DNA of 53,939 nucleotides. It comes from an archaeon. GTDB taxonomy: Archaea; Nanobdellota; Nanobdellia; Woesearchaeales; GCA-2686295. The first letter of the stretch is position 1; each line of letters opens with the position of its first letter. Below the pieces are notes generated by a model that saw only the letters and a program-made list of their open reading frames with translations, was not told the DNA's origin and ran no database searches. This document shows positions 504-8,801 of the stretch, one piece after another. Made by a program: the position numbers and the translations under genes. The stretch lies in NCBI GenBank assembly GCA_043817405.1, contig JBDRGV010000027.1, positions 1 through 53,939 on the forward strand, in the 5' to 3' direction.

Positions 504-2061
<1,558 letters not shown>

Positions 2062-2412
2062 TGGTTTCCAATTCCTGATGTCCAAAAATCAAAGATTTTT
2101 GTTACAACGAGAATTGTTTAAAACAATTCCTGATTATTCAACATGAAGTTGAACAAGCGGTAATTACTATCGTTTTTATTTGGTCGCAATTAAATTATTT
2201 CAGAATTGGCTCTATTATATAGAGCTGTGGTTGCATGTATTCCTACCAATACTTGAGCATTACATCAAGCATCTATTTTTGTGTGATACTTTCGTCATAC
2301 AAACGACCTTTCGGTCTCTGACAGAATTGGAGTTGATGTGTAGGAAATCTCGATTCGGATTCCCGCATATTCACATCTTAATGATTGTGAGAATATCTAG
2401 GAAAAAAAGGCC

Positions 2413-2428
2413 GTTTATAAATGTTTCT
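2413..2428 (-). promoter_or_regulatory. Probable rRNA operon promoter (BRE + TATA)
   Basis: Minus strand AGAAACATTTATAAAC about 350 nt upstream of 16S. Confidence 0.55.
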
Positions 2429-2492
2429 ATGCCTCTGAAGATTAGAAACTTCAAAAAACTTGTTTTTTGTATCTTACGGTGGAAGAAACACA

Positions 2493-2918
2493 CTATTGAA
2501 GTTCAAACTCTGCTTTAGTTATATTATAGTGTAGAACTTTTATCCCATGATCAATTAATTGTTGATGGCTATCATCATGCTCATATACTGGTCTGAGTTC
2601 CCACCAACATTCACCTTCATGTTCAGCTTCAAAATCCTCATCAGCAGTTATTCCTAATGAAATTCCAAGAAATTCGCCACTATAATGATTTAATGTAACA
2701 ACCTCTTTCACACCTTTCTTTTTCAGAATTTCAATTCTTTCATCATTATTTTCATAGTTCAATTCTCCATAATTGGATAATCCAAAAACTTCTTTTGCAT
2801 TTGGCCAAGAAACTTTGTAAAAAAGCAGTTCACTTCCTTCATTATCAATGGTTGATTCTTCAAACTCATAAACAATGTATTTTCCATTCAAATCTTTTTT
2901 TAGTTTATCTTCAAGCAT
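2493..2918 (-). CDS. hypothetical protein
   Basis: 141-aa acidic ORF, TATA-like element upstream, no recognised motif. Confidence 0.7.
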   Translation of the reverse strand: MLEDKLKKDLNGKYIVYEFEESTIDNEGSELLFYKVSWPNAKEVFGLSNYGELNYENNDERIEILKKKGVKEVVTLNHYSGEFLGISLGITADEDFEAEHEGECWWELRPVYEHDDSHQQLIDHGIKVLHYNITKAEFELQ

Positions 2919-2976
2919 GAGAATAAGAAATACTGGAATTTTTAAAAATGTATAGAAAAAAAATAAAAAGAATTAA

Positions 2977-3162
2977 TTATTTACTTTTGTAAACAAAATA
3001 GTATATTATTGCTGTGATTATACTCAAGACAATTGCTAGAACAATCCACAGAATTTTCATACCATCCGTTAGTTTTTTATTTTTAGTTACAACATCGTAA
3101 ATGACCCATACTGCACAAATAAGTGCGATAAGTCCGATGAGACCGCCTCCAAATAAACCCAT
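2977..3162 (-). CDS. small two-helix membrane protein (PLDc_N-like)
   Basis: WVIYDV...KILWIVL...IIYYF pattern; SD GGTGA precedes the ATG at 3162. Confidence 0.75.
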   Translation of the reverse strand: MGLFGGGLIGLIALICAVWVIYDVVTKNKKLTDGMKILWIVLAIVLSIITAIIYYFVYKSK

Positions 3163-3229
3163 ATTATCACCCAATAAAATGAGTTGAATAGGTTATTTAT
3201 AAGTTTTATTATTGTGAAAAAAATAGAAA

Positions 3230-3595
3230 TTATTTATCGACTACTTGTCTTTCACATATTAGATCATCTAAAGGTGCTTTAGTTGTTTTATTATAATCGG
3301 CCAATACTGAGTTAGCAATATTATAACCTTCATTCACAATATTTGGTGTGCCTGCATGATCCATAAGCATTTTAGCTGCTTCTTTCAAATCAGCTTTTGA
3401 TCCGTCTAGAAAAAGTTTATATGACATCTTTTTATCTGAAGCCATGAGAAATGCTTCTACTCCAGGAAGTTTGATTCCGATTGCTTCCAAACCATATTTT
3501 AATTTTGTTATCACATCAATTGTTTTTCCCAGATCGTTTGTACCTAATGGTTTATACGATTTTGCAACGTCATATTCAATTCCTAATTTTGCCAT
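3230..3595 (-). CDS. hypothetical protein
   Basis: 121-aa ORF with AGGT SD, co-oriented with its neighbours. Confidence 0.7.
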   Translation of the reverse strand: MAKLGIEYDVAKSYKPLGTNDLGKTIDVITKLKYGLEAIGIKLPGVEAFLMASDKKMSYKLFLDGSKADLKEAAKMLMDHAGTPNIVNEGYNIANSVLADYNKTTKAPLDDLICERQVVDK

Positions 3596-3618
3596 TTTAT
3601 TTTACCTTTATTAATATT

Positions 3619-4110
3619 TCATGAACTTTCTAGATCATCAAGTTTTTCTATGACTTCATCCACTTTTGGTTTTAGAACGCCTGTGACTTCTGCTAATCCT
3701 AATTTAAGTGTTCCTTCACCATCATAGGTGGTTGGTTCATCCATATTGTTCATTACATCTTTTACTGATTCTAGTGTACCTGAAGTGTGTTTGATTTGTA
3801 CTTCCAGAGGATTTGTTTGCTTTGTATTATAAAGAGCTGAAATTGCTTTTTTTGCAGCCCCTTGACCATTATCTCGATCGTAACCCCAAGGATTTAATGT
3901 ATCACCTGAAATATCAATTTTCATAACTCTTCCATAAAGATAGTCAAAATAAGGTTCACCTTCATCAACTAATAATTGTGCGTCTTCTTTAGACATTGGT
4001 TTAGGATCATAGTGCATAAATCCCATTCCTTGTGGTTTTGAAGCATTGTAAAGTACTGCCAAAACATCTGCTTTATCAAGATCTTTAATATCTATTTCTC
4101 CATCAGTCAT
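3619..4110 (-). CDS. hypothetical protein (LYN...GMG...YFDYLxGRVMK...YDRDNG family)
   Basis: 163-aa ORF with GGTGA SD and conserved-looking motifs. Confidence 0.8.
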   Translation of the reverse strand: MTDGEIDIKDLDKADVLAVLYNASKPQGMGFMHYDPKPMSKEDAQLLVDEGEPYFDYLYGRVMKIDISGDTLNPWGYDRDNGQGAAKKAISALYNTKQTNPLEVQIKHTSGTLESVKDVMNNMDEPTTYDGEGTLKLGLAEVTGVLKPKVDEVIEKLDDLESS

Positions 4111-4240
4111 TTTATTTCACCTATTTTTTAAGTTTATAGAGAATAAGTATTATTCACCCATATATAAATGTTTTCATTTTTACTACTATTTAGTAATTAC
4201 TTTAGAAAGATTTAAATATTGACACAATATACCTGGCAAC

Positions 4241-4648
4241 ATGATTTTAGCAGACATCGTGAAAGGAGCATATGTTTCAATACTAGGAAATAGAGTTAAT
4301 GTTGTAGGTATAAGTCTTATAATTGCAGACTCATGGATGCAATTTGGACCTGACGCAGTAGAATACTCACAGTTTGCCAATCATGTGATAAATACAGGAG
4401 TCATATTTTCAGGGCTAACCATATATGGTATAGAAACAAAGGCAAGTTACAAGAAAGTAAAAAAACATATTCAAGAAACAGGTTCCTTAAATAAAGAATT
4501 TCTAAAAAAAGGTCTCAATAAAAAAAATAGGATTTTCAATTATTGTCGTTCACAAGGAGTCTACTTAGCTGCGAAAGAATTTGGTTATACAAAACAATTC
4601 AAAGAAGCTAAAAAACTATATTCTAAAAGTATCATTCCTAATTTCTAA
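4241..4648 (+). CDS. hypothetical membrane protein
   Basis: 135 aa with hydrophobic segments; stop overlaps the convergent gene. Confidence 0.6.
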   Translation: MILADIVKGAYVSILGNRVNVVGISLIIADSWMQFGPDAVEYSQFANHVINTGVIFSGLTIYGIETKASYKKVKKHIQETGSLNKEFLKKGLNKKNRIFNYCRSQGVYLAAKEFGYTKQFKEAKKLYSKSIIPNF

Positions 4649-5316
4649 GAATCAATTAACTTATCTTCATGAGGCAATTTGTATTCACTTAGAAAAGTAA
4701 AAATTCTTCTTAAGATTGGTTTTATTTTGTCTTCGGAAAGTTTGTATGCAGAAGTATTCATGATCAATTTAACCGCTAAATCAGGTATGTGAAGATGAGT
4801 TTTCAAACCCAGTAGTCCGTTCTGAGGAGTCCAATTATCATGTCCGCCCGGTTTAGCATACTCTCGAACATTACGCGGTTCAAAATTAAAATCACCATAA
4901 GGAGTCTTGAATGATAAGAAATTAACATTTTCTTTAGATAATAATTTGTTCTCTAATTCAGAATCTTCATCATCCTTTCCAGTTAAAGTTATATGAACTG
5001 GTGTTTCATTTTTTGATGAAAAAATAACTCCAAATTCTTTATCACCCACTCCTGCAGGCGTGTAATTTTCTTTTTTTAATTCATGATAAAAACCAGCCAA
5101 TTTGCCAACATAAAAAGAAGCATCTTTTTTAGGATTAACTCTCCAACCTAGAACTGCATATCCTCCTTTTTTGACTTTAGGATATCTGTCTGCAAAAAAA
5201 GCCAATTCATCATCAACAAAATAATCCCATTTTTCCATATAATCATCATCAGTTATGCATTCATTGATTCTCTGCAATGAATACTCATTAAATGTTACCT
5301 TTACTTCATCAACCAT
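4645..5316 (-). CDS. hypothetical protein
   Basis: Long ORF; start moved to the ATG (MVDEV) just downstream of a TATA-like TTTAAAA. Confidence 0.65.
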   Translation of the reverse strand: MVDEVKVTFNEYSLQRINECITDDDYMEKWDYFVDDELAFFADRYPKVKKGGYAVLGWRVNPKKDASFYVGKLAGFYHELKKENYTPAGVGDKEFGVIFSSKNETPVHITLTGKDDEDSELENKLLSKENVNFLSFKTPYGDFNFEPRNVREYAKPGGHDNWTPQNGLLGLKTHLHIPDLAVKLIMNTSAYKLSEDKIKPILRRIFTFLSEYKLPHEDKLIDS

Positions 5317-5394
5317 AAAAAAGAAGGAATACAAACTAGTTTTTAAAGATATGTCTTGAGAATAATCAACAAGACATGGAATCAACAGATTTAA

Positions 5395-5961
5395 CTATTT
5401 TCTACAATGATATACAAATGCAGGAGGCAGATTATTCCAGATTATTTTAGTTCGTTCTACTCGTTTAAATTTGTTATTTAACAATTTTTTAAATCTAATT
5501 CCTGTTGGAAGAAAAAGTCCTTGAAGATATGCAAATGTAAGAAATTCTCCTCCTTCTTCAAGAGAGTCGTATGCAGAGTGTAATAATTCCTCCTGAAGTT
5601 TTTGATTAAATACAGCCCAAGGAAGACCAGATATGATACAGTCACAATTAGCTCGTTCATTTTCTAACAAATACCTGTTAATATCCTTAGCCGATGCATG
5701 ATAAACAATTGCACTTGGACAATTTTTTTTAGTTTCTTTAACGAATTCGTGATTTATTTCCAAACAAAAGAAAACGCATTCATCGGATATTTTTCTAGTT
5801 ATTTCATTTGTAAATACGCCAGATCCAGAACCCAGTTCCACAACACATTTTTTATTTGCTAAAGATGCCCTGTCAGTAATAAGTTCAGATAAACCCTTCG
5901 AAGAAGATGCAATGGCCCCAGTTTCCAAGGGTATTTTTAAGAATTGTTTGAAAAAATTCAT
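5395..5961 (-). CDS. SAM-dependent methyltransferase, PmtA-like (phospholipid N-methyltransferase family)
   Basis: TGAIASSS, VVELGSGSGVFT, IISGLPW and NLPPAFVY motifs. Confidence 0.85.
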   Translation of the reverse strand: MNFFKQFLKIPLETGAIASSSKGLSELITDRASLANKKCVVELGSGSGVFTNEITRKISDECVFFCLEINHEFVKETKKNCPSAIVYHASAKDINRYLLENERANCDCIISGLPWAVFNQKLQEELLHSAYDSLEEGGEFLTFAYLQGLFLPTGIRFKKLLNNKFKRVERTKIIWNNLPPAFVYHCRK

Positions 5962-5998
5962 GATAAATTAAATATTAACCTGTATTTTATAAATTATT

Positions 5999-6520
5999 CT
6001 ATTGACCGGTTTTTTCTTCTAAAGAAACTTCTTGTTTTTTCTTAAACAACCCTGTGTAGACTCCAATAAGAGTGTGGAAAGATCTTGTCACAACCATTGT
6101 TCCCCAATAAGCCATTTGATTTGCAACTCCGGGTCTAAAACCTTTACCCATAAGAAAATCGTGAAAAGGAACTGCCATTACATAGAATAATCCCATTACA
6201 GGTGCGTTGGTTAAATAGAATTTACCCACATCTTTCCAGAATGCTTTTTTATTGAAAATTCCTTCTTCATTAGTAAATTCTTCTTTATTGGCGTTATAGT
6301 GGAGACCGACTAGTATTGGAAAATATGTTACCAACTCAGTGATTGCTGCAGCCGTTGCAATTACAGCATCAGGTTGTCCTTGATATGCCATAAATTCAGA
6401 CATTCCGGACGCAAAACCAAAACTGATTATTGAACCAGCAACAACATTCAAATTGATATTAACTACACGATTGTTTTTGTAAATGTCAATTGCTTTCCGA
6501 ACTATATTGTCAAGGGCCAT
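5999..6520 (-). CDS. hypothetical membrane protein (about 4 TM)
   Basis: 173 aa with alternating hydrophobic helices. Confidence 0.7.
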   Translation of the reverse strand: MALDNIVRKAIDIYKNNRVVNINLNVVAGSIISFGFASGMSEFMAYQGQPDAVIATAAAITELVTYFPILVGLHYNANKEEFTNEEGIFNKKAFWKDVGKFYLTNAPVMGLFYVMAVPFHDFLMGKGFRPGVANQMAYWGTMVVTRSFHTLIGVYTGLFKKKQEVSLEEKTGQ

Positions 6521-6619
6521 TTCACATTTAGGAATAAAATGTAATATTTAAAGCTTTAGAAGAGTAGTTACTTTTAAGTAATAAAATTATAAAACTTCAA
6601 ACTTAAAAGAACATTTCTT

Positions 6620-6666
6620 AAGAATTTAGAATCACTTATTCCGTCTCTTTCTCTTTTCTTTTTTCA
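6620..6666 (-). repeat. Direct repeat copy C of rpl41e 3' end (att-like)
   Basis: 46/47 identical to 7841..7887. Confidence 0.95.
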
Positions 6667-6672
6667 ATGAGT

Positions 6673-7083
6673 TTACAAATGCTTAGTTCCTAAATCTTCA
6701 GTAAATCTTAACAAATAACCATCAGGATCTTTAATAAGAAATTCTTTATTCCTAATAAATTGATCATCTTGCCTATACCAATTTTCTTTAGGTTCAATAA
6801 AAATAGGATATTTATTTTTTTTAAGATTATCTAAAATTGGTTGGATTTTATCAACTTCAATTTGAAAATTAATTCCCCTACCAAAAGGATGTTGTAATTC
6901 GCCTGTACTCCAATTATCATTAACTTCTTCAATCATCATCTGACTTCCTTGAAAAGAAATCATAGCGAATTTAGACTCGGTTCTTTGATATTCAATTTTG
7001 AATCCGAGCACTTCAATATAAAATTTTAAACTTTCTTCAAAATTCGACACACTTAATTCAGGAATTAATTTATTGAATTTCAT
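6673..7083 (-). CDS. VOC/glyoxalase-bleomycin resistance family protein
   Basis: LIPELSV...FY..VLGF, GRGINFQIEV and DPDGYLLRF motifs; start set at MKFNKL. Confidence 0.88.
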   Translation of the reverse strand: MKFNKLIPELSVSNFEESLKFYIEVLGFKIEYQRTESKFAMISFQGSQMMIEEVNDNWSTGELQHPFGRGINFQIEVDKIQPILDNLKKNKYPIFIEPKENWYRQDDQFIRNKEFLIKDPDGYLLRFTEDLGTKHL

Positions 7084-7129
7084 AATAGTATAACAAGCTC
7101 TATTGTTAAATATTTTTCTAAAATAGAAT

Positions 7130-7163
7130 TTCAAGAATTTAGAATCACTTATTCTGTCTCTTT
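7130..7163 (-). repeat. Direct repeat copy B of rpl41e 3' end (att-like)
   Basis: 34/34 identical to 7838..7871. Confidence 0.95.
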
Positions 7164-7208
7164 ATAAATATAGAAACAATTAATAATAAAAACATATTCC
7201 TTGTTTTT

Positions 7209-7815
7209 ATGACTTCAAATAATTACTTTGTCTTTATTGAAAAAGCTTTTCATAATTTTGAATTAAAAGAATTAGCAGAGTTATTGAGTTTTCCTTATGG
7301 GAAAAAAATTTCTGAATATGGAAATAATAATGGATTACCACATATTTGGTCCGGAAGACTTTCTTCAGGAATAATTGGATTAACAAACTGTGTTGCTGGA
7401 AACAGAGGACCAAAAGAACAAAATGAAGTTTTATTAGGTGTTGGAATACAAGGATTGGACAAATTAGTTGATATAGGTTTTGTTCCTTGTGTTGTTTGTC
7501 ACCCTGAAAAAAATAGATAATTTCTGGCAACCAATAAAAAACACTGTTTCTGAAAAATATGACTTAAACTCATTAGAAGATTTTCTTGATAAAGAAATAA
7601 TGCCTTTCGATGCAAGACGACTTAATTGGGAAGAAATTCTACCTATGACGGGAAAAACACCGAGCAGACTTTACCTACCTATAGGTTTGAAAGAAAAAGA
7701 CATTTATGCCCTTGATAGAAGATTCGCAAGCATAGGATTCACAATTCCAAAAGTAGGATATTATGATTCTAAAGCAGAAACCAGATTCACAGAATACAAA
7801 GTAGTTAATATTTAA
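7209..7815 (+). pseudogene. Ada-type Zn-binding-domain protein split by a one-base insertion in an A7 run
   Basis: GFVPCVVCHP resembles Ada GYRPCKRCxP; deleting one A at 7507..7513 fuses the two ORFs (…HPEKIDNFW…). Confidence 0.7.
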
Positions 7816-7852
7816 GATTGTTTCTTATTGAAAAATGTTCAAGAATTTAGAA

Positions 7853-7954
7853 TCACTTATTCTGTCTCTTTCTCTTTTCTTTTTTCATCTTTTTACGTTG
7901 CCACTTCCAACGCATTTGACCTTTCTTTTTCCATCGTCTGGAACTTCTTTTCAT
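7853..7954 (-). CDS. rpl41e: ribosomal protein eL41 (absent from ORF track)
   Basis: MKRSSRRWKKKGQMRWKWQRKKMKKEKRKRQNK*, with the MRWKW..K.M signature of archaeal L41e. Confidence 0.88.
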   Translation of the reverse strand: MKRSSRRWKKKGQMRWKWQRKKMKKEKRKRQNK

Positions 7955-8129
7955 CCTTACATTGCTTCACAACTTTGTTCGTTGCTAGTTAGACCTCCAT
8001 TACTTTCTGTTGGAACTATGGTCTGTTTAAAAAGTTTTGGAATATATGAAATTCCAAAATTCAAAAACAAGATTGTTTTTGTATATTGCTATCAACAACT
8101 TTATATAGTAAATAAATTAACCTTTTTTC

Positions 8130-8801
8130 ATGAAGAATTTATTCAAGTTGCTTTCAAAGGAGGATAAGATTCTTATTTCTATTTCATGGGCTTTGAAGTT
8201 TGCTTTTCTTTTTGTACTTGTAACTTCTACAGTCAAAGGTAATATTCTTTATGCGGGACTTGCGTTACTAGTATTAATCATGTCTTTTCTTCCTTCCATG
8301 ATTAAGAGGCGTTTTAACATTATTTCTCCTCCTGAATTTGAACTAATCATTGCTCTATTTCTTTACGCTTCTTTAATACTTGGTGAAATGAATAATTTCT
8401 ACTTCAAATTTCCTTGGTGGGATGTAATGCTTCACGGTTTTTCAGCCATAATGATTGCACTCATTGGTTTCATGATAGTATTTTCATTGTACTACACTCA
8501 TAAAGTCGTTTTTTCAGCTTTGGTTGCTTCGATTTTCGTATTCTCGTTTGCTCTGTCAATCGGCGCTTTATGGGAGATATTAGAGTTTGCCATGGACTCA
8601 TTCCTCAAATTAAACATGCAAAAGAGTGGATTGATAGATACCATGTGGGATTTGATAATAGATAGCATCGGAGCCTTAATAGTAGCCATAAGTGGTTACT
8701 TCTATATGAAAGGCGGACCATCTTTTTTGATGGAACGATTTGTAAAGAAATATATAAGTATAAATCAACACAGATTCAAAAATAAAAAAGAATTGGTTTA
8801 A
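8130..8801 (+). CDS. integral membrane protein (DUF2238-like)
   Basis: WWDVMLH, ALWEILEF and DTMWDLIID motifs. Confidence 0.8.
   Translation: MKNLFKLLSKEDKILISISWALKFAFLFVLVTSTVKGNILYAGLALLVLIMSFLPSMIKRRFNIISPPEFELIIALFLYASLILGEMNNFYFKFPWWDVMLHGFSAIMIALIGFMIVFSLYYTHKVVFSALVASIFVFSFALSIGALWEILEFAMDSFLKLNMQKSGLIDTMWDLIIDSIGALIVAISGYFYMKGGPSFLMERFVKKYISINQHRFKNKKELV

Follow-up and report, generated by a model that had tools for sequence, protein, structure and literature searches.

In Rhs, contact-dependent inhibition (CDI) and type VI secretion system (T6SS) effector-immunity arrays, partial gene ends that begin at different 5' positions and stop at a shared 3' limit each have a module behind them, and the orphaned 3' ends of Rhs and CDI arrays are explained by displacement. 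In streptococci, integrative and mobilizable elements (IMEs) integrate at the 3' ends of rplL, rpmE, rpmG and rpsI, and both cis-mobilizable elements (CIMEs) and tandem accretion are documented (PMC5704250). Archaeal elements whose attachment (att) sites lie within protein-coding genes have been described, as have tandem integration and the subsequent loss of integrase genes (PMC8371274). The locus analysed here lies in an uncultured DPANN archaeon, on a stretch of 53,939 nt (contig JBDRGV010000027.1 of assembly GCA_043817405.1, hereafter the window), where the 3' end of the ribosomal protein gene rpl41e occurs three times and the copies enclose two units, A and B, each holding a single gene. 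Scars of this kind are known; the setting is new, namely rpl41e beside the rRNA operon, unusually small single-gene units and a DPANN host. The genome holding the window is designated G000 (1,121,550 bases in 67 contigs, 92.9% complete), and C-, G- and L-numbers denote the contigs, genomes and loci that were compared.

The repeat copies were examined by sequence comparison, which bore out the positions, lengths and matches given for them in an earlier note on this DNA (Table 1). The single mismatch of the distal copy is a C at 6642, where the native copy has a T at 7863, and the start-to-start spacings of the three copies are 513 and 708 nt. A 22-mer common to the copies was found three times in the window compared with 0 times in 100 shuffles, and three times in the whole 1.12-Mb assembly, every occurrence being at the rpl41e locus. 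Further copies elsewhere in the genome, which the earlier note had envisaged, were not found with up to three mismatches allowed, and a short-word BLAST search of G000 with 131 nt around rpl41e gave nothing else above noise. As that note had also observed, the copies begin at different points in the gene and end within 3 bp of each other: 19 nt of coding sequence precede the stop codon in the middle copy and 35 nt in the distal copy, and the downstream limits are at most 3 nt apart. The native and middle copies have TTCTTGAA in common, including three extra bases, and both units therefore brought the same boundary. The distal copy is followed by TTCTTAA..., the flank type of G004, G005 and G010, and is therefore joined to the old chromosome. 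The three copies are best explained as the junctions of two separate insertions at a site spanning the rpl41e stop codon. The 674- and 463-bp units are thus inserts at the rpl41e end, and their cargo is one gene each, neither of them a recombinase, in keeping with the earlier description of inserts with no integrase in cis.

A target duplication of the transposon or casposon type was considered and rejected, the duplications being 34 and 47 bp rather than of fixed length; no terminal inverted repeats were found at the unit ends. The 10-nt palindrome TTCTTAAGAA at the distal flanks was examined as a candidate site. It occurs nine times in the genome, and it was dropped because its one junction-like occurrence falls within a coding region.

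The tandem order was examined in a second assembly and in the Logan contigs of three sequencing runs (k=31), with regard to the possibility of an assembly artefact, raised at the outset; such an artefact could arise if a small circular element or strain variants were threaded into the chromosome at a common k-mer. A metagenome contig of 1726 bp from the second assembly (L038) was colinear with 6824-8549 of the window, running from the native copy through unit A and the middle copy into unit B, with 0 indels and 12 substitutions. All of the substitutions lie in 6849-6937 (12 of 89 positions) and the two sequences are identical over 6938-8549. Since the two assemblies agree on the tandem, it was taken as real; despite their 12 differing positions, they run in an identical linear order across the two junctions of unit A. 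In the best run, one Logan contig covers 6161-6911 with 0 differences and spans the distal copy, and another covers 7134-7871, also with 0 differences, and corresponds to unit A with 30 identical bases at each end. As a loop in a k=31 graph, the latter fits a free 708-bp circle together with an empty site equally well. The depth of the Logan contigs is 4-7x and is alike over units and flanks, and the 47-bp copy has no 31-mer in common with the other two, so that no graph loop can arise from the distal copy. An artefact is accordingly very improbable. Two runs of another study contained pieces of 250-300 nt from each unit at 100% identity. A weak Logan joint from 5741 to 7120, with only 21 nt on its shorter side, was taken as spurious. 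The arrangement is real, recent and tidy.

A second allele of the unit B gene, which encodes a glyoxalase-superfamily protein, is present in the community at a divergence of about 13-14% (window 6849-6937 compared with L038, and 6700-7054 in run X1). In L038 this divergent allele is joined to window-identical DNA from 6938, representing either a recombinant allele or a chimeric contig, and it matches none of the G015, G001 and G020 alleles.

Table 1. Positions of the rpl41e-end copies, the inserted units and the neighbouring features. Positions refer to the window unless a contig of G000 is named.
Feature	Position	Strand or size	Description	Basis
rpl41e (eL41)	7853..7954	minus	33 aa	Alignment with L41e of solved archaeal ribosomes
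Native repeat copy	7838..7887		Last 35 nt of rpl41e including stop, plus 15 nt downstream	Sequence comparison, shuffles
Middle copy of rpl41e end	7130..7163	34 bp	Exact	Sequence comparison and short-word BLAST
Distal copy of rpl41e end	6620..6666	47 bp	1 mismatch; flank TTCTTAA... as in relatives	Bridged by Logan contig 6161-6911
Unit A	7164..7837	674 bp	One frameshifted gene, convergent with rpl41e	Bounded by native and middle copies
Unit A gene, N-terminal half	7209..7520	plus	103 aa, Cys motif	Aligns with N-terminal half of ~190-205 aa homologues
Unit A gene, C-terminal half	7480..7815	plus, +1 frame	111 aa	57 homologues
Unit B	6667..7129	463 bp	43-nt AT-rich upstream region, VOC gene, 6 nt	
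VOC/glyoxalase-bleomycin-resistance superfamily gene	6673..7086	minus	137 aa	PF00903
Strain-specific accessory run	2426..6619		Eight open reading frames, from distal copy to 16S promoter	DNA comparison, Pfam
16S rRNA gene, far border of hot spot	506..2061	minus		Rfam RF01959, 1348.8 bits
tRNA-end inserts in G000	C29:4480-4683, C36:45960-46128, C36:51940-52167, C21:19716-19940			

The closest described counterparts are the streptococcal CIMEs of the ICESt1/ICESt3 family, in which direct repeats containing the end of a ribosomal gene bound tandem units, the gene stays intact, integrase and transfer genes are absent, and mobilisation in trans has been proposed (PMC5704250). At the rpl41e locus the 3' end of the target gene is likewise contained in the bounding direct repeats, the target is intact and the units hold no integration or transfer genes. 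The two cases differ in that the host here is a DPANN archaeon, the anchor is rpl41e beside the rRNA operon and there is no conjugation context; the units are one-gene segments of 0.46-0.67 kb rather than decayed elements of several kb; and no related integrase-bearing element is known for the rpl41e site. An autonomous relative with the same att site, a feature by which CIMEs are recognised, was not found in viral contigs, in the public collections or in 20 relatives' loci. The islands formed by Prochlorococcus tycheposons show a comparable pattern in a streamlined genome, with repeated integration that pushes older DNA away, partial target copies and niche or stress cargo, although tycheposons target tRNAs and encode a tyrosine recombinase, often together with replication genes (bioRxiv 10.1101/2020.12.28.424599), whereas the present units have no recombinase, lie at a protein-coding target and are far smaller. 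Integrated elements of archaea resemble the locus in their coding-region targets and their tandem or integrase-less states. The targets named for them (HMG-CoA reductase, a cation efflux gene and an AsnC regulator) do not include a ribosomal protein gene, and the elements are proviruses or plasmids of many kb (PMC8371274). A literature search combining L41e and integrase gave nothing relevant.

The unit A gene is read in two frames that switch at an A7 run (7507-7513), and the identical run is present in L038 and in the Logan contig. A HMMER search with the second open reading frame (ORF) gave 57 relatives at E<=1e-3, mostly 170-210 aa long and matching in their C-terminal half; since the two ORFs align with the N- and C-terminal halves of the homologues, they represent one gene of about 200 aa with a +1 frameshift. 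The best match is 55% identical, and all other members of the family are intact. Of 401 genomes of the order, 13 have a member of this gene family, whereas the 7 other genomes of the archaeon's own taxonomic family have none, and the 13 loci showed no flanking repeats save a tandem paralogue in G250. A profile built from 21 full-length relatives matched the N-terminal domain of E. coli Ada at E 0.007-0.02, and one homologue matched Pfam PF02805 at E 0.099, which is under the cut-off. Three of the four cysteines of the Ada zinc site are kept and invariant, and the first Ada cysteine, which we take to be the methyl acceptor, aligns with a glycine. The term Ada-like thus denotes what seems a real, weak resemblance. 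No usable match to the family was obtained in the ESM Atlas. The unit B protein matched PF00903 with 40.7 bits (cut-off 20.6, E 3.7e-10), and no specific function could be assigned, as all 22 of its NCBIfam matches, to glyoxalase I, fosfomycin and bleomycin proteins, were far under their cut-offs.

The DNA between rpl41e and the 16S rRNA gene was compared with that of relatives. The window opens with the start of the 23S gene, followed by the 16S gene, whose leader and promoter extend to about 2425; homology of the leader with relatives stops at 2421-2426. In 11 of the 20 relatives' loci rpl41e immediately precedes a 16S gene of the same orientation. Counted from the rpl41e stop codon, the 16S gene begins after 134-713 nt in G012, G027, G004, G023, G001 and G005, and after 3232 nt in G015, 3492 nt in G007, 4813 nt in G006 and 5791 nt in G000. 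The same-genus genome G004 has only about 60 nt between rpl41e and the 16S promoter, and the whole of 2426-7837 is absent from it. The length of the spacer, which holds strain-specific genes, varies across the genus between about 60 bp and 5.4 kb; upstream the gene order PGI, membrane protein, rpl41e is kept, and downstream nothing is common. Because it varies so much in length and content, the rpl41e-16S spacer of the genus is a variable insertion hot spot; a comparison of this region in relatives had been proposed in the earlier note. The inserts of relatives encode a ZIP transporter, methyltransferases, a nitroreductase, a GH3 enzyme and a transglutaminase-like protein, without a recombinase. 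G006 and G007 have a ZIP module in common. It adjoins the rpl41e stop in G007, and in G006 the two are separated by 1.7 kb of additional DNA, inserted precisely between the stop and the flank of the module; the rpl41e side is therefore where new DNA comes in and from which older DNA is pushed away.

The phylogenetic affinity of the unit B protein differs from that of its neighbourhood. It is 80% identical to a protein of G015, which belongs to another family, 71% to that of G020, and 64% and 60% to those of the same-genus genomes G001 and G003, compared with 48%, 40%, 60% and 62%, respectively, for the core gene PGI. At the DNA level the gene is 83% identical to G015:C50:288-695, and the similarity stops no more than 5 nt from the ends of the ORF. 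Judged by the 80% identity to the copy from another family against 48% for the neighbouring PGI, the glyoxalase gene is mobile and of foreign origin. No flanking repeats were found around the glyoxalase genes of G001, G020, G003 and G012.

In G015 the glyoxalase gene is itself the first of four units in an array behind a tRNA gene (L041, G015:C50, 60-4544, on a 6.6-kb contig). The tRNA gene is intron-bearing and lies at 60-182; it was detected by Rfam with 40.1 bits and missed by ARAGORN, and its sequence suggests a tRNA-Gln. A 66-nt repeat follows the glyoxalase gene, occurs at 698, 2284, 3025 and 4479, and ends in the last 14 nt of the tRNA; the core is itself followed by a conserved stretch. 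The four units consist of the glyoxalase gene, a protein with TSP_3 repeats, two small ORFs and a Fic/DOC protein, and there is no integrase on the contig. The junction motif is not present in G000 and was found in 1 of 401 genomes of the order, G015 alone. The same glyoxalase ORF therefore stands in two arrays with different anchors and different junctions.

Recombinase genes were sought both on the contig of the window and throughout G000 (PF00589). None is present on the contig, and the genome-wide search, foreseen earlier, gave just two proteins, a 269-aa Xer-like protein on C54 and a 401-aa integrase on C30. No serine recombinase, Y1 transposase or Cas1 was found in this 92.9% complete genome, and neither was IntI with attI, the IntI-specific extra domain being unexamined. 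Contig C30 (4892 bp; L005 1276-2583) carries an intron-bearing tRNA-Arg(TCG) followed by a tyrosine integrase of 349-401 aa, a PIN-domain protein and two larger ORFs. It looks like an integrated element whose far end is unassembled, and no second copy of the tRNA-Arg(TCG) end was found in G000.

A script run over the genome detected four tRNA genes with inserts of 54-95 nt, each closed by a 13-22-nt copy of the end of its own tRNA. The tRNA-Ala, tRNA-Phe and tRNA-Trp genes are followed by about 90 nt and then a 13-nt copy, with one 65-nt hairpin element common to the three, and the tRNA-Leu gene is followed by 54 nt and then a 22-nt copy. Partial hairpin elements were also seen away from tRNAs, at C61:24350 and C32:35944.

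The reading tentatively preferred for the rpl41e locus is that A and B are integrase-less, CIME-like units that accreted in tandem by site-specific recombination supplied in trans. It is favoured because of the array in G015, the 13-nt copies behind the tRNAs of G000 and the common boundary of the two units. Each incoming unit would have consisted of one gene and its own rpl41e end, made up of 19 or 35 coding nt, the stop codon and a further 12-15 nt. A crossover within the common stretch would keep rpl41e whole and would therefore leave a partial copy behind each unit, and the resulting map, gene-core-A-core-B-core-flank, is that expected from two integrations into one site. Such cis-mobilisable units would be moved in trans, perhaps by way of circular intermediates, by a tyrosine recombinase from outside the units; its source might be a different element or cell, or a portion of the genome missing from the assembly. 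The units may have been small from the outset or may be remnants of larger integrase-bearing elements. Sequential insertion had been read from the perfect copy nearest the gene and the mutated distal one; that pattern is present, but it does not fix the order, since entry of B into the distal site after A gives an identical map.

A wider extension of this reading, which must be regarded as unlikely at present, is that Woesearchaeota-type DPANN share an integrase-free pool of single-ORF cassettes that insert at the 3' ends of various essential genes: the putative tRNA-Gln of G015 and, in G000, rpl41e as well as several tRNAs. The glyoxalase ORF would then be repackaged in each genome with a junction derived from the host gene. 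Such a pool would be integron-like, but its sites would be copied from the anchor gene and driven by a putative recombinase.

Several observations weigh against recombination in trans at the rpl41e site. The copies reach different depths into the gene (19 and 35 nt), the units have no common arm sequences, unlike the junctions in G015, and unit B has no room for arm sites. Empty-site or circle junctions were not seen in the Logan contigs, in which k=31 could not resolve a 34-bp repeat. The sole non-Xer tyrosine recombinase of G000 adjoins the tRNA-Arg on C30, where there is no rpl41e-like sequence. Among relatives, none of 16 has a second rpl41e end, including those with large inserts at the site, so that the duplicated ends for which the earlier note proposed a comparison of relatives were not found there. 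This search took in 20 loci, of which 16 had an rpl41e ORF found by pattern (L027, L028, L030 and L035 were left out) and three others had less than 1.2 kb of DNA downstream. The short matches seen in L026 and L032 were rejected as low-complexity chance, and a 15-nt match to the rpl41e end on the other strand of L037 was left uninspected. A pattern scan of public collections for an integrase-bearing element with the rpl41e-end site gave 0 matches in viral contigs. The same scan returned L038, a G008-like contig and G005 among metagenome contigs and G005, G007 and G008 among genome contigs, and more than one rpl41e-end copy was present only in L038, which is this locus again; the other contigs had a single copy.

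The symmetry of the core speaks for a dedicated site, within limits. A dyad AGAAT-N5-ATTCT lies in the core across the rpl41e stop codon, and the distal mismatch falls on the gene side of it. All five genomes of the genus with the dyad have ORFs wedged at the site, and the two without it that keep the rpl41e-16S arrangement have none, but this association comprises only seven related, non-independent genomes. The dyad arms are just 5 bp and single-strand folding of the copies was no better than that of shuffles, which also counts against a dedicated site. DNA folding of the copies gave z values between -1.3 and +1.2 relative to shuffles; the range was -0.07 to +1.16 for the middle and distal copies, folded on either strand, and for the native copy folded on the minus strand.

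The main rival account, somewhat less probable, dispenses with a dedicated recombinase and invokes displacement by homologous recombination, in which DNA from a related cell entered with the conserved rpl41e end and another downstream gene. The DNA could have entered as a circle, by a Campbell-type single crossover on 34-50 bp, or through one homologous and one illegitimate joint, and the resident gene end with its module would have been pushed downstream as an orphan. The locus does have the form of a displacement array, with orphaned ends of variable 5' limit and common 3' limit and its own module behind each, and partial copies limited in this way are what orphaned ends would give. It resembles Rhs, CDI and T6SS orphans in these respects and differs from them in that those have variable toxin tips and immunity genes, whereas here an invariant end is followed by unrelated single genes. 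The lack of arm sequences in common between the units also suits displacement, as do the islands without repeats at the site in relatives, which fit a double-crossover exchange. With a DNA identity of 80-88% across the order, rpl41e would form, together with the conserved 16S gene, ideal homology anchors framing the hot spot. The mosaic of L038 within the glyoxalase gene, where 12 of 89 positions differ and the next 1.6 kb are identical, resembles allelic recombination.

Displacement nevertheless needs, for the first joint of a module end to the interior of rpl41e, either an illegitimate event or a circle of unknown origin, and the same downstream boundary with the three extra bases of TTCTTGAA in both units points to a common site rather than random joints. 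The same cargo gene stands in the clearly site-specific array of G015. A length of 34 bp is in general near the lower limit of efficient homologous recombination, a limit that is not a figure from these archaea, and the middle copy is of just this length. The inserts behind the tRNAs of G000 are closed by 13-nt copies, which would be too short for ordinary homologous recombination. Recombination supplied in trans was therefore retained as the preferred reading.

The earlier note had described the locus as integron-like, that is, as a dedicated capture platform on rpl41e at which a specialised integrase recruits cassettes with their own sites. The sizes of the single-gene units (0.46-0.67 kb) are those of integron cassettes, the genes stop within 6-22 nt of a junction, and the G015 array has conserved, cassette-borne junctions of 66 nt. 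Integrons are reported in archaea, Nanoarchaeota included, mostly without a nearby integrase gene (PMC9668308), and in integron arrays and clusters of attC sites lacking integrases (CALINs), as here, small single-gene units stand in a row with no integrase nearby (PMC9668308); the stress- or toxin-type cargo of G015 adds to the likeness. The rpl41e junctions, by contrast, are plain copies of the host-gene end with no attC-like hairpin, neither IntI nor attI was found, and the only tyrosine recombinases of the genome are the Xer-like protein and the integrase associated with a tRNA. In contrast to integrons, the two genes lie on opposite strands, that of unit A on the plus and that of unit B on the minus strand, each unit having its own AT-rich upstream stretch. 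There are two units only, none of the 16 relatives has any, and the G015 junction motif, absent from G000, is confined to one genome of the order. An integron-like platform is thus improbable, and this part of the earlier interpretation was not supported.

DPANN archaea have tiny genomes with few recognisable mobile elements, and their uptake of accessory genes is poorly understood. At the rpl41e locus two single genes were acquired cleanly and recently, at a defined point just behind an essential gene, and in sister genomes other genes have entered at that point. Through its glyoxalase gene the locus is connected with an array in a different family that is anchored on a tRNA. If one recombination system underlies both arrays, this would be a simple and testable route of gene capture in ultra-small archaea, for which the 34-bp core would be a ready biochemical substrate. 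If homologous recombination is responsible instead, the conserved rpl41e and 16S rRNA genes would frame an exchange slot.

The anchor gene was identified by alignment, residues 1-32 of its product matching chains 6skf_Bk, 6tmf_c and 6sw9_0 at E 6.5e-4 to 7e-4. The protein is near-identical in 16 relatives. The ORF has no match in Pfam PF05162 or NCBIfam, and archaeal control genomes gave no PF05162 match at the cut-off either. Upstream of rpl41e, about 90 nt (7955-8044) have a DNA identity of 79-86% across the genus, which is unusually high for a spacer, and a 37-aa minus-strand ORF (7957..8070) stops 2 nt before the rpl41e start.

The accessory run of 4.2 kb showed no DNA match beyond a stretch of about 50 nt when compared with 12 relatives. 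The stretch lies at 4160-4221 in the divergent spacer of two accessory ORFs, and about 50-60 nt of it recur at 84-90% identity once each in G006 and G007 and in two places in G008. Pfam identified a methyltransferase and a small PLDc_N membrane protein, the other ORFs having no match, and in virus and defence libraries searched with 11 island ORFs the methyltransferase was the sole match. This 188-aa protein (5395-5961) corresponds to part of the PADLOC model mad2 (mads_2), at E 5e-17. The run had been suggested to consist of older, eroded captures. It is absent from G004, and no eroded rpl41e-end copies were found within 2400-6619, where local alignment gave only low-complexity runs.

In G005 (L022, G005:C31, 3040-3354) a 104-aa ORF separates rpl41e from the 16S promoter and is convergent with rpl41e, the two stops being 2 nt apart. 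It has no Pfam match and contains a D...E-x-K pattern, which presumably recalls PD-(D/E)XK nucleases.

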